A stretch of DNA of 48,880 nt, from the IMG/VR virus record IMGVR_UViG_2877274432_000013; one strand, 5' to 3'. The position numbers and the translations under genes were made by a program. Numbering within the stretch: position 1 is the first letter of the stretch; every line of letters starts with the position of its first letter. This stretch comes from a virus. Its lineage: Duplodnaviria; Heunggongvirae; Uroviricota; Caudoviricetes. This document shows, piece after piece, positions 946 to 9,639 of this stretch. The notes below the pieces were generated by a model, which worked only from the letters and a program-made list of their open reading frames with translations, searched no databases and had not been told where the DNA came from.

Positions 946-1569
946 TTGGTATTAAACAACCCATACTTTGAGGCTAATGCCGGGGGGGCAGACCTTGCTA
1001 TAGATAATACTGGGACGCGCCCTGTAACTGTGGTTATAAACGGTGGAAATTTTCATCGCGTGAGCAGTGCAAGATACACGCACACGAATATTCAAGTAAC
1101 AAGCTCAGGTGGGGGAAAAGTTACAGTCATACTCAACGGCACAACGTTCCAGAGCGCAGGGGATTATCAGCCAAGTGCAGAACGACCATACTGGATAACA
1201 GGAGCTAATTGCGAGGTAGTTGACATTGGGTGTGTTTTTACAGAAACAACCAGTAAGGTAACATCGGCTTCTGCATTGTCAGTCACACGCTCGGGAAAAA
1301 TTAACGCCAATGGTAGTATCGACGTTGCTACTGGTGTTTCATCGGTTAACGTGGTTTCTACAGGTGTGTATGATGTTAGCTTTTCTCATCCGCTCGCAGC
1401 AGTTGCTAGCGGTTATATTGTGCAGATAACACCTATATCTGCGCCTGATTCAGTTAGTTGTGATGTTACTTATATTGGCGTAGATACATTTAGGGTGACC
1501 CTGCGCAATACGCTTAGCGGGGCAGGAATCTCCAGTTCGTTTGCATTTAGCATTACCAGACTAATATAA
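946..1569 (+). pseudogene. putative phage tail fibre/tailspike C-terminal remnant, truncated by IS600
   Basis: Gly/Ser/Thr/Val-rich translation typical of fibre distal domains; starts directly after IS600 end; sits next to oac-like gene and att core as in tailspike-oac-attP phage arrangements. Confidence 0.35.
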
Positions 1570-1622
1570 ATACATTCGCCGCCCCATTTGGACATATATG
1601 TAGGGCGGCTTATGTTTATTGT

Positions 1623-2795
1623 TTATTGATTGTTGTTTGTTAATGTGGGTATTAATTCTTTTACTAAAGTTGTGGTTTGTTTTGTTAATTTGATGAATGG
1701 CGTCTCTATTAATTTAAAAGTTAGGCATGATGTGAACGTAATAAGAAATGCAGTTGTGCTTACCAGTATGATAAATGTATTTTCAGTGTAATTATTAGGA
1801 ATAATCCACGTCATTAGGCAATAAAGGAATATCCCATGCAGAAGGTAAACGCTGTAGGTAGTTTCTCCTAGCTTTCTGGTTATATTTAATCTTAATATTC
1901 CATACAAATCACAACCTGATGCGATAATGATAAATGTTATTCCACAAAGAATCAGTGGTAGCGGTGCGTAAGTTGTTTTGAAATACGTCATTTCAAAAAC
2001 CATTATCGCAGTTATTATAATTGGTGTTACTTTTGCTTTGGCAATTCCATTGACTATCTTTGATTTATTTAGCAAAAATGCCAGGAGCCCAAAAAGAAAT
2101 GATGCTATGTGTATTTTACTGAAAAATAAAATGAAAACAAATAGCGATATTGCGCTAATCATAACCATGTAAATACTGACTTTTCTTTTTATGAGCGCGG
2201 AAATTACCGGAAGAGAAAAATAAAAGAACCATTCATATACAAGTGTCCATGTTACAGCGGCATTGATAGTAAATGAATCTTTTACGTCATTAATGTTCGG
2301 CATACCTAGCGCAGTGAATGGCAACCACTTCATTATTGACACAAAAAGCTCTTCTGTGGATACCTGCATTCTCCATCCAGACTTAAAACCTACAATGATA
2401 AAAATGAGACATAGGCTAACTATGAACATTGGGGTTAATCGTAGTAATCTTGATACATAAAGCCTTGTCCAGTCCTGATCTCCAGAGATAATCTTTGAAA
2501 AGAACAGATAACCAGTAATCATAAAAAAGAATGACACACCAACTTGGCCTAAATTTGCTAACAGATTTGATGAAGGTGCTTCCCATACTCCAGATGACAA
2601 GTATCCATTCCAAATTGCTGCGTGATGAATAAGCACGAAAATTGCTAAGAACCCCCGCATTCCATCTATTTGATTATTCCTGCCGTGCTCAACAAGATTT
2701 ATTGGGGAAATTTTATCAAATAACCCCACAGCTAATAACGACATCAATATCACGGATGTTATTAATAATAAACTGTTAATTTCAATCATATGCAT
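1623..2795 (-). CDS. acyltransferase family 3 integral membrane protein (O-antigen O-acetyltransferase, Oac-like)
   Basis: 390 aa, polytopic hydrophobic protein with acyltransferase-3 features; phage-borne O-antigen acetylases occupy this position next to attP; possibly oacD-type but not verified. Confidence 0.8.
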   Translation of the reverse strand: MHMIEINSLLLITSVILMSLLAVGLFDKISPINLVEHGRNNQIDGMRGFLAIFVLIHHAAIWNGYLSSGVWEAPSSNLLANLGQVGVSFFFMITGYLFFSKIISGDQDWTRLYVSRLLRLTPMFIVSLCLIFIIVGFKSGWRMQVSTEELFVSIMKWLPFTALGMPNINDVKDSFTINAAVTWTLVYEWFFYFSLPVISALIKRKVSIYMVMISAISLFVFILFFSKIHIASFLFGLLAFLLNKSKIVNGIAKAKVTPIIITAIMVFEMTYFKTTYAPLPLILCGITFIIIASGCDLYGILRLNITRKLGETTYSVYLLHGIFLYCLMTWIIPNNYTENTFIILVSTTAFLITFTSCLTFKLIETPFIKLTKQTTTLVKELIPTLTNNNQ

Positions 2796-3083
2796 GCTCT
2801 ATTACGCAATTAAAATTTCTCCAAGTATACTGACTTTTAGTTAATGATCATATAGTTATGTGTAACTGATGAAACAAAACGGAGACACACCAAGCTTTGC
2901 ACTGGATTGCAAGGCTTTGTGCTCTTCTGTGAATGTGTGGCTATATGTTTGAAGATCGTTGTGCCGTATTTGTGACATATATATGGCAACATCATGCATC
3001 AACTTTCTGTTTGTGTCATCAACTATAGCTTAGTGAATGCGGTTAATGCTTGCTAAAACAGATAGTTATGATTGGTGCTACAG

Positions 3084-3129
3084 ATTCGTAATGCGAAGGT
3101 CGTAGGTTCGACTCCTATTATCGGCACCA
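3084..3129 (+). other. att core: 3' 46 nt of a tRNA-Thr(CGU) gene (thrW-like), no 5' half
   Basis: ATTCGTAATGCGAAGGTCGTAGGTTCGACTCCTATTATCGGCACCA matches the thrW 3' end from the anticodon loop to CCA; upstream sequence is not tRNA. Confidence 0.8.
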
Positions 3130-3634
3130 TTTAAATCAATAAGTTACACATCATTAGTACCTTCCTTATTTCTTGACTGGGACAAATTTGGGACCGATGG
3201 GTTCAGAATCAAGTCTATTTGCCGTGCGTGTTCGGTAAGGTGATTAGGTGCGAGGTGAGCATATCGACGAACCATTTCGATAGACTCCCAGCCTCCCATT
3301 TCCTGTAACACTGATAACGGGACTCCGGCTTGAACCAGCCAACTTGCCCAGGTGTGTCTCAAGTCGTGAAATCTGAAATCATCAATACCAGCCCGTCTCA
3401 GCGCCGCTTTCCAGGCTGTGTTTGCGTCATACCGCATCTTCCTTACTGTTGGCGCTTTCGTTCCGTCTGGTTTGGTACAGCTTTCCTTGTACACAAATAC
3501 CCAACGGTGATGATTTCCGATTTGTTTTTTCAATACGCGACATGCAGTATCATTCAGCGCAACGCCAATTGCGCGGTTTGATTTACTCTCTTTGAGGTGT
3601 ACTGGCAATAGCGGACACTACCATTTGTTCTTTT

Positions 3635-8157: not shown

Positions 8158-8976
8158 ATGTGTCAGGTATTTGGTGTATCCAGGAGCGGTTATTACAACT
8201 GGGTACAGCATGAACCCTCAGACAGAAAACAAAGTGATGAGCGGCTAAAACTGGAGATTAAGGTGGCACATATCCGCACTCGCGAAACATATGGAACCCG
8301 GCGGCTCCAGACGGAGCTGGCAGAGAATGGCATCATCGTTGGTCGTGACCGACTGGCACGTCTTCGTAAGGAGCTGAGGCTACGCTGTAAGCAGAAACGC
8401 AAGTTCAGAGCGACTACGAACCCGAACCACAATCTGCCAGTTGCGCCAAATCTGCTGAACCAGACGTTCGCTCCTACAGCACCAAATCAGGTCTGGGTGG
8501 CGGACCTGACGTATGTTGCCACACAGGAGGGATGGTTGTACCTCGCTGGCATCAAAGATGTTTATACGTGCGAAATTGTCGGCTACGCCATGGGAGAGCG
8601 CATGACAAAAGAGCTGACAGGTAAAGCCCTGTTTATGGCGCTCAGGAGCCAGCGCCCACCTGCCGGGCTAATCCACCACTCTGATCGAGGTTCACAGTAC
8701 TGCGCATACGATTACCGGGTCATACAGGAGCAGTTTGGTCTGAAAACATCAATGTCGCGTAAAGGTAACTGTTACGACAACGCTCCGATGGAAAGCTTCT
8801 GGGGAACGCTGAAAAATGAGAGCCTGAGCCACTATCGTTTTAATAACCGGGATGAAGCCATCTCAGTAATACGGGAATACATTGAGATTTTCTACAATCG
8901 TCAGCGTCGTCACTCTCGTCTGGGGAATATCTCCCCGGCAGCCTTCAGGGAAAAATATCATCAGATGGCTGCTTAA
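8158..8976 (+). CDS. IS600 transposase OrfB
   Basis: 272 aa, near-identical to the other two copies. Confidence 0.9.
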   Translation: MCQVFGVSRSGYYNWVQHEPSDRKQSDERLKLEIKVAHIRTRETYGTRRLQTELAENGIIVGRDRLARLRKELRLRCKQKRKFRATTNPNHNLPVAPNLLNQTFAPTAPNQVWVADLTYVATQEGWLYLAGIKDVYTCEIVGYAMGERMTKELTGKALFMALRSQRPPAGLIHHSDRGSQYCAYDYRVIQEQFGLKTSMSRKGNCYDNAPMESFWGTLKNESLSHYRFNNRDEAISVIREYIEIFYNRQRRHSRLGNISPAAFREKYHQMAA

Positions 8977-9019
8977 AAAAAGAACAAATGGTAGTGTCCG
9001 CTATTGCCAGTACACCTCA

Positions 9020-9378
9020 GGGTGTTTGTCCACACCAAACCTGCCTACCGAAGCGACGGAACAAAAACAGCAGCGGTAAGGAAGATGAGAACCGACAGCA
9101 ACAAGGCATGGAAGGGAGCGTTAAAGCGGGCAGGCATTAGCAACTTCCGCTTCCATGACCTGAGGCATACCTGGGCAAGCTGGCTGGTTCAGTCCGGTGT
9201 CTCTCTTCTTGCGCTTAAAGAGATGGGAGGATGGGAAACTCTCGAAATGGTTCAAAGATACGCCCACCTTTCAGCCGGGCATCTTACCGAGCACGCGAGC
9301 AAAATCGATGCGATTATAAGTCGCAATGGCACAAATACGGCACAAGAGGAGAACGTAGTTTACTTAAATGCGAGGTAA
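9020..9378 (+). pseudogene. tyrosine integrase C-terminal fragment (second, different integrase) truncated by IS600
   Basis: ...[42 protein letters not shown]...; reading frame enters from the IS600 end; roughly 70% identical to the C-part of the other integrase. Confidence 0.8.
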
Positions 9379-9392
9379 CTTATTGATTTAAA

Positions 9393-9438
9393 TGGTGCCG
9401 ATAATAGGAGTCGAACCTACGACCTTCGCATTACGAAT
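9393..9438 (-). other. att core: second copy of the 46-nt tRNA-Thr 3' fragment, inverted
   Basis: Reverse complement identical to 3084-3129; shares the same 18-nt integrase-side arm TTTAAATCAATAAGTTAC. Confidence 0.8.
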
Positions 9439-9639
9439 TATAAGGATCCGCTTGTAATTCAAAGGATTATCCCATCAACACTGCGCTCACACGTCCCACC
9501 ACATCAAAACATGTAAAGCCTTGCAAGCCATTGTGAGGCCTTATGTGTCTCAGTTTTGTCTCATCAGACATAGCAAGTATCGATCAATTGAGACTTGGAT
9601 GATAGACTTCATGCCTTTCAGAGCTCATTGATTAAATAA

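Follow-up and report, generated by a model that had tools for sequence, protein, structure and literature searches.

Two inverted thrW attachment cores with hybrid phage arms in the serotype-conversion locus of Shigella flexneri 1a 0228

Attachment cores, their arms and the adjoining integrases

The stretch of DNA analyzed here (48,880 nucleotides, IMG/VR virus record IMGVR_UViG_2877274432_000013, assigned to Caudoviricetes; hereafter the window) is the terminal part of the chromosome of Shigella flexneri 1a 0228 (CP012735.1) and lies at the proA-thrW...adrA serotype-conversion locus. Window positions 38523–48880 match the last 10,360 nt of CP012735.1 with 100% identity over 10,358 nt, and this is the sole record in which the final ORF of the window is found. 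The left part of the window contains two fragments of the tRNA-Thr gene thrW in opposite orientations, each placed between phage-derived arms and each adjoining a different integrase gene. The locus sets the serotype of S. flexneri, with gtrI responsible for type I glucosylation and oacB for 3/4-O-acetylation of RhaIII, and is therefore relevant to serotyping and to the design of O-antigen vaccines.

The window contains exactly two copies of the 46-mer ATTCGTAATGCGAAGGTCGTAGGTTCGACTCCTATTATCGGCACCA, at 3084–3129 on the plus strand (core A) and at 9393–9438 on the minus strand (core B), in agreement with an earlier interpretation made from the letters of the window without database searches (the sequence-only reading). 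The intact thrW gene of the same genome ends on its 3' side in these very 46 nt, and the published attachment (att) core of phages SfI, SfII, SfV, SfX and P22 agrees with them letter for letter (PMC3636060). Chance matches to the 46-mer were found in 0 of 100 shuffles, even with three mismatches allowed. In both copies the core is followed by the same 18 nt, TTTAAATCAATAAGTTAC, which makes a perfect 64-nt inverted repeat of junction A (3084–3147, plus strand) and junction B (9375–9438, minus strand). The tRNA 5' half, reported as missing from both cores, is indeed absent: ARAGORN detects no tRNA at core A or core B, and aligning both copies with the true thrW of this genome gives the same result.

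On the other side of the core the two junctions differ, as had been stated. Core A is preceded by a 217-nt P arm of the SfX/HK446 attP type (armX, 2867–3083, plus strand; 96% identity to the SfX record U82084), which forms the upstream region of oacB and leads to oacB and a tailspike remnant. Core B adjoins a P arm of the SfI attP type, about 200 nt long (armI, 9439–9639, plus strand; assigned by its match to SfI and by alignment), which forms the upstream region of gtrA and leads to gtrA-gtrB-gtrI. The shared 18 nt run into the 3' ends of two integrase genes, in both cases reaching the stop codon. At junction A this is the 3' part of int_A (3144–3592, minus strand), an integrase of the SfI/SfII/SfIV/SfV type with 98–99% identity; at junction B it is int_Y' (9020–9378, plus strand), a 3' fragment of 118 codons from an integrase of the SfX/HK446 type. 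The integrases of the window match the Pfam family Phage_integrase (PF00589) and belong to the P22-family tyrosine integrases that act at thrW. The 118 residues of int_Y' are 100% identical to the SfX and HK446 integrases and only 61% identical to int_A.

Neither gene is intact. int_A is split by a copy of the insertion sequence (IS) IS600, with its 5' part at 4856–5573 (minus strand), and removal of this copy restores an open reading frame (ORF) of 387 aa that is 98.7% identical to the SfIV integrase; the 5' part together with xis occupies 4856–5884, past the IS600 copy. xis_A and two early-left ORFs follow at 5450–6405 (minus strand, 99.6% identity to SfIV, SfV and SfII), the last of them, a DUF551 gene, being cut by an IS629-like element. 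Of int_Y only the last 118 codons are present. In the SfX record U82084, int_Y, the core and armX are contiguous and 96–98.6% identical to the corresponding pieces of the window.

Six att regions were aligned in one register to assign the arms to types, a comparison with thrW and with phage attP sequences that had been suggested along with the sequence-only reading. In this alignment the left arm of junction A is of the SfX/HK446 type and its right arm of the SfI type, and junction B has the opposite combination, with the SfI type on the left and the SfX/HK446 type on the right. Both arms of the SfI attP are of the SfI type, both arms of the SfX and HK446 attP are of the SfX/HK446 type, and the attL at thrW in the same genome combines the tRNA 5' half on the left with an arm of the SfI type on the right. 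Phages SfI, SfII, SfIV, SfV, SfX, P22 and HK446 share the order cargo-attP-int-xis and an identical core, with integrases 98–100% identical to one or the other of the two types in the window, but a free thrW phage has both arms of one type, whereas each junction in the window has arms of two types. Junctions A and B are reciprocal hybrids of the SfI-type and SfX/HK446-type attP. The succession of phage arm, core and phage arm, on account of which both had been described as attP-like, is thus present, but the junctions are hybrid attR/attL joints and not true attP sites.

The two cores and two integrases of the window belong to a set of three of each in the chromosome. We refer to the start and the end of CP012735.1 as loci L013 and L014. 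An intact tRNA-Thr(CGT) gene, whose presence beyond the window had been anticipated, is located at 3372–3447 of L013, about 1.5 kb past the right end of the window, and is joined to the third core and to the third integrase (int_G). The order in L013 is a repeat of window 47071–48880, xis and int of the SfI type, thrW, proA, proB, phoE, crl and gpt. The resident gtrI prophage fills 9439–48880 and is normally integrated at thrW, with its xis and int just past the end of the window; the possibility that it was inserted by IS600 recombination with its attP intact was considered and rejected, as the prophage has its own int/xis and the intact thrW at its far end. Core B and thrW are both on the minus strand and core A is inverted relative to them. 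Since the cores are not all in direct orientation, a simple tandem array does not suffice and a secondary inversion is required.

int_G is the sole full-length integrase, although it differs from the restored int_A by 5 indels and is frameshifted (L013 2195–3354). These indels may be sequencing errors rather than signs of a real pseudogene, given that the differences within the assembly overlap of the record consist of indels only. The overlap concerns the final 1.8 kb of CP012735.1 (window 47071–48880), a copy of positions 1–1812 of the record with 4 single-base gaps and no mismatches; it is an untrimmed overlap of a circular assembly, linearised within the gtrI prophage.

Insertion sequences and the oacB block

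Three copies of IS600 are present, and the name assigned from the letters alone is borne out by 99.6% identity to elements annotated as IS600 family. The window begins inside copy A (1–861, plus strand). Copy B (3593–4855, minus strand) is a simple insertion in int_A, flanked by the target duplication CTT (3590–3592 and 4856–4858). Copy C (7756–9019, plus strand) has the flanks GTC and GGG and thus lacks a target duplication. On one side of it is a minus-strand early-left remnant, consisting of a sliver of an ASCH-domain gene, the DUF551 gene, xis and int_A, and on the other the plus-strand int_Y'; it is the sole joint between divergently oriented phage fragments. Target duplication is also missing at the IS629-like element of the IS3 family (6406–7711, minus strand; identified by repeat comparison, Pfam and Rfam). 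In related genomes copy A itself carries an IS629-like insertion with the target duplication CGT. The ASCH sliver (7712–7755, minus strand) is 44 nt long, lies on the same strand as xis_A and int_A, and by comparison with early operons comes from a gene sited further upstream in such operons. It had been considered as the continuation of the SfIV-like ORF interrupted by the IS629-like element, which was rejected because SfIV continues differently.

Two smaller observations concern these elements. An A-run close to the right end has one base fewer in copies A and B (1263 nt) than in copy C (1264 nt; 3631–3636 versus 8976–8980), which is either a real allele common to A and B or a homopolymer error. 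An ALIL frameshift pseudoknot (RF01497, 116 bits) is located at 7260–7376 (minus strand) within the IS629-like element, and an Rfam scan of window positions 1–14000 detected nothing except this IS3 pseudoknot.

Between IS600 A and junction A lie the C-terminal remnant of a tailspike gene, cut by IS600 A (862–1569, plus strand; ORF 946–1569), and oacB (1623–2795, minus strand), which encodes an O-antigen 3/4-O-acetyltransferase of 390 aa with an Acyl_transf_3 domain (PMC4159516). Both are related to Sf101, a P22-like podovirus that carries oacB (PMC4159516) and is 91.5% identical to window 922–2927. In S. flexneri CP026871 (locus L004) the sequence beyond IS600 A continues for 6.5 kb with Sf101-like late genes, gp16...gp4, at 95.9% identity and collinear with the tailspike remnant and oacB, which indicates that a whole Sf101-like podovirus was formerly present at this place. 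Sf101 itself differs from the remnant in its attachment module, as it has an sbcB-type integrase and a 13-bp attP, whereas oacB in the window is joined to a P arm of the SfX/HK446 type and to the thrW core.

Shared junctions, isomers and deletions in other genomes

Comparison loci were taken from public assemblies found with the exact OacB protein and with the int_Y' ORF, and were then mapped onto the window. In addition to those already named, L009 and L025 are from strain 2457T (L025 from AE014073), L005 is from CP130061, L022 and L023 are from scaffold KN150717, and L011 is from E. coli EH08-18-36. The junction of IS600 A with the tailspike remnant is identical in 10 of 10 oacB loci, and the joint of oacB, core and int_A is present in all ten oacB-centred loci. 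Exact matches or contiguous alignments place the junction of IS600 C with int_Y' in six further assemblies (L004/L019, L009/L025, L018, L020, L024 and L026) and in scaffold L022, and the joint of int_Y', core and gtrA recurs in independent complete genomes including 2457T. Depending on the genome, the IS600 C–int_Y' junction adjoins gtrI, gtrII, a gtr gene of 437 aa or a gtr gene of 417 aa. Its recurrence beside various gtr clusters, a gtrIV-like one among them, indicates that the junction is not an assembly error and that the int_Y' remnant is old. In L026 this junction directly adjoins thrW-proA, and in L027 an int_Y that runs uncut past the breakpoint of the window does the same; this arrangement is the landing site without a phage. 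These loci fit the notion that the old int_Y' remnant served as a landing site for later phages.

Other loci represent rearranged forms. L024 has the order adrA, IS629-like element, IS600 (1185 nt), int_Y', and is the product of recombination between the direct copies A and C of IS600, with the oacB/int_A block deleted. In L021 the intact thrW is joined at the core to a copy of int_A interrupted by IS600 B, 99.9% identical to window 3084–8519; taken together, L021 and the L001-type loci show the topology of the window type flipped at the outer inverted repeats of core and int. Most 2a genomes have a deletion from the IS629-like element to the region upstream of adrA. The segment 3084–9438 has a single internal order and orientation in every genome that carries it, and isomers are found only for the outer pair, the core of junction A versus the core at thrW. 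Flip and deletion derivatives among the public complete genomes account for the patchy distribution of oacB. The deletion derivative and the flip isomer in other complete S. flexneri genomes add weight to the IS-mediated deletion and inversion proposed in the sequence-only reading.

In scaffold KN150717 a prophage with gtrII and a P22-like prophage with an integrase and arm of the SfX type lie in tandem, in direct orientation. The int_Y of its locus L023 was considered as the state preceding the inversion and was rejected, since its IS600 lies 140 nt from the breakpoint of the window and is an independent insertion, and the integrase belongs to a resident SfX-type prophage. An inversion between two IS629-like copies that would have flipped the block was also rejected, as the CGT duplication around the copy within IS600 A is intact in L004.

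Several further arrangements were observed. In 2457T (L025 7829–8684 and 19470–20294) both SfII-type int/xis copies abut IS600 at the xis position equivalent to 5708 of the window, in mirrored fashion, which points to an inverted duplication or to gene conversion between the arms. KN150717 (L022 7380–7500) and the 2a genomes (L003 14423–14522) share the breakpoint upstream of adrA but have opposite ends of the IS629-like element attached to it; simple recombination between IS copies does not explain this, and the scaffold may be misassembled. In CP130061 (L005 1–9036) the Sf101-like genes gp16–gp14 are found past the opposite end of the int_A block, and the IS600 of int_A is interrupted by an IS1; this is a further rearranged form of the locus. 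L018–L020 contain a cryptic form of the gtrI module in which an IS600 connects the tail-fibre side with the inner part of int. E. coli EH08-18-36 (L011 5205–7100) has a full integrase of the SfX/HK446 type, the core, the start of an SfI-like arm and a type II restriction-modification cargo, an attP-like joint located in a chromosome and lacking the tRNA 5' half.

Proposed history of the locus and its alternatives

We consider it likely that at least three temperate phages integrated successively at one 46-bp core, that the locus holds what is left of them, and that IS-mediated deletion and inversion followed. Integration of SfI at the attL of a resident SfX prophage, in tandem in the proA-yaiC region, has been shown experimentally (PMC3306764), and the same work maps IS600, IS629 and a putative int between attB and yaiC/adrA in the host. 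Two types of P22-family tyrosine integrase, SfI/SfII/SfIV/SfV and SfX/HK446, share the core, and each newcomer would recombine with the tRNA-proximal attL and displace the older prophage outward. The joint left by each integration would then consist of the P arm and O-antigen gene of the newcomer, the core, and the int arm of the older phage. Reciprocal hybrid arms are what is expected when two integrase types with one core integrate successively at the tRNA-proximal attL, and together with the third core at thrW they support the tandem integration that had been proposed from the window alone.

We suggest that the int_A phage (SfII/IV/V type) arrived first, the oacB phage second and the gtrI phage last. 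Junction A would have formed when an Sf101-like podovirus, carrying oacB and an att module of the SfX/HK446 type, entered the attL of the older int_A prophage. Later gtr phages would have used the new attL, and junction B would join the resident gtrI prophage to the older SfX-type integrase remnant; int_Y' and the arm of oacB would in this history come from a single phage. Insertion of IS600 and IS629-like elements would have been followed by deletion of the greater part of both older phages, and the distal block could have been inverted by an exchange at IS600 C, with junction A left opposite to thrW and junction B. The missing target duplications at IS600 C and at the IS629-like element, and the position of IS600 C between divergent phage fragments, support IS-mediated deletion and inversion. 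The surviving cargo genes, oacB and gtrABI, are presumably under selection, each being read outward from its own att arm, and for this reason they would be unaffected by the inversion. Excision of the oacB block is no longer possible, as its core faces the opposite way to thrW and the integrases beside it are broken; the block can only flip or be lost by recombination between IS600 copies.

Several observations weigh against this history. The reciprocal product of the inversion, in which the 5' 0.8 kb of int_Y would be joined through IS600 to the rest of the ASCH gene, was absent as an exact pattern from every fetched locus and from a contig pattern scan. Homologues sought with the N-terminal 268 aa of HK446 Int, and the cluster listing that followed, comprised only full-length or N-terminally truncated proteins. 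The window and the L021/L001 types are flip isomers of each other, and structure alone gives neither the ancestral form nor the route by which the oacB phage entered. The proposed common origin of int_Y' and the oacB-armX module is based on module type, and SfX itself combines this arm with this integrase. At the adrA breakpoint of scaffold KN150717, the IS629-like element is oriented in a way that fits no simple scheme.

More tentatively, the inverted cores with their adjacent 1–1.5 kb of int/xis homology might act as a recurrent flip point, and oacB might derive from an Sf101-like phage that integrated at thrW and had an SfX-type att module, instead of having been moved from sbcB by IS transposition. 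If so, a flip would exchange the remnant attached to thrW and would convert excisable direct att pairs into non-excisable inverted ones, so that serotype genes such as oacB become locked into the chromosome.

Among the other explanations, it is conceivable, though unlikely, that the oacB phage entered through IS600 and not through its att site. A circular oacB phage, either excised or newly arrived, with an IS600 in its int would have formed a cointegrate with an IS600 in the early region of the int_A prophage, bringing in an intact attP (armX-core-int_Y) in inverted orientation, and the hybrids would have arisen by a later core-core flip. Exact reciprocal hybrids in inverted orientation are the product of recombining two inverted native attP sites, IS600 C has no target duplication, flip isomers exist between strains, and removal of the gtr prophage from the L021/L001-type isomer leaves armX-core-int_Y', which looks like a native attP. 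The arrangement in the window would, however, require one step more than tandem integration, the substrate would have to be the circle of an integrase-defective phage, and tandem integration at attL is the route that has been observed experimentally at this locus (PMC3306764). With its flip, the cointegrate predicts the same far junction as tandem integration and amounts to a flip isomer of the history of successive integrations.

A composite IS600 transposon that carried the oacB block from an Sf101 prophage at sbcB into an int_Y remnant upstream of adrA, with the core as a passenger, appears improbable. IS600 A and C are direct repeats that bracket window 862–7755 (tailspike remnant, oacB, core and int_A), as the two elements of a composite transposon would, and the block is missing as a unit in L024, but homologous deletion between A and C explains L024 equally well. 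There is no outer target duplication, the flanks being GGG at IS600 C and, in L004, ACT/AGT at IS600 A. The sequence of L004 past IS600 A consists of the collinear Sf101-like late genes and not of the 5' part of int_Y, which places IS600 A inside a phage genome and not at the edge of a transposed unit. Finally, oacB adjoins the SfX-type P arm and the thrW core and not an attP of the sbcB type. A phage integrated at thrW explains the oacB block better than a transposed unit does.

It seems very improbable that the inverted cores constitute a working inversion switch for O-antigen genes driven by the integrase of the resident prophage. The att sites are inverted and have full P and P' arms, SfI-type int/xis is located beside thrW, and topological isomers occur between strains. 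Against this, neither oacB nor gtrABI is part of the segment between the cores, and both are read in the direction away from it, so that flipping 3148–9374 would, judging from the gene positions, leave their promoters unchanged. The constant internal order of 3084–9438 in all genomes holding the segment also argues against a switch, two of the three integrases are broken, and the isomers concern the outer pair, whose approximately 1.5 kb of shared int/xis homology makes RecA recombination sufficient. Misjoining across the three IS600 copies of a long-read assembly, the collapse that the sequence-only reading had named as an alternative, can be dismissed: the record is imperfectly finished (4 indels in the 1.8-kb end repeat, 5 in the thrW-proximal integrase), but both att junctions lie in unique sequence 445–2200 nt from any IS600, the IS600–int junction is present in six other assemblies and in scaffold L022, and the joints of the window recur in independent assemblies including 2457T.

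Relation to known systems and the resident prophage

The locus and the tandem mechanism are already known, and in this sense the locus is an ordinary one. The literature (PMC3306764, PMC3636060, PMC4159516, PMC5596473) covers the core, the two integrase types, the gtr-attP-int-xis order and tandem integration at attL, as well as the int remnant flanked by IS600 and IS629 between thrW and yaiC/adrA and the position of oacB 6.8 kb from gtrA. What is added here is modest detail: the reciprocal hybrid junctions, the oacB block best read as the remnant of a thrW phage, and the flip and deletion derivatives in public genomes. These details leave the general understanding of such loci unchanged.

The closest counterpart is the tandem lysogeny of SfX and SfI at thrW (Sun et al. 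2011, PMC3306764), which involves the same 46-bp core and the same two integrase types and produces a joint of gtrA(I), core and int(X) equal to junction B. The window differs in that only a 355-nt int fragment is left of its older SfX-type element and in that a second, inverted hybrid joint is present, junction A. A transposon-like structure with oacB upstream of adrA was described by Wang et al. 2014, as cited in PMC4159516 and PMC4206707, and in strain Y394 oacB is located 6.8 kb upstream of gtrA (PMC5596473), a spacing equal to that in the window. The gene, the locus and the block bracketed by IS600 are the same in all of these cases. Contrary to the transposon-like view, oacB in the window retains an SfX-type att arm and the thrW core, and CP026871 also retains Sf101-like late genes. 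The gtrI prophage is of full length in the window, whereas it is cryptic in Y394. As in tRNA polylysogeny and decaying islands in general, tRNA 3'-end fragments mark the boundaries and the intact tRNA gene is found at one end; the inversion of one boundary and the heavy erosion by IS elements, typical of Shigella, set this locus apart from general tRNA arrays.

The distal end of the resident prophage consists of gtrA, gtrB and gtrI (9640–12442, plus strand; 99.9% identity to phage SfI), and its remainder (12443–48880, plus strand) contains tail fibre, myovirus structural and lambda/434-like early genes. The prophage is a mosaic. The identity of 99.9% to SfI extends only over 9375–13513 (gtrABI and the end of the tail fibre), the segment from about 13435 to 33000 is 96.9% identical to structural genes of vB_EcoM-606R2-like myoviruses, and the sequence past about 33000 is 97.5% identical to lambda/434-like early genes. 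The only tRNA genes detected by ARAGORN in the window are a tandem tRNA-Thr(TGT) and tRNA-Asn(GTT) at 36552–36707 (minus strand), which are unrelated to the thrW fragments; SfI has the same tRNA pair downstream of Q (PMC3636060).

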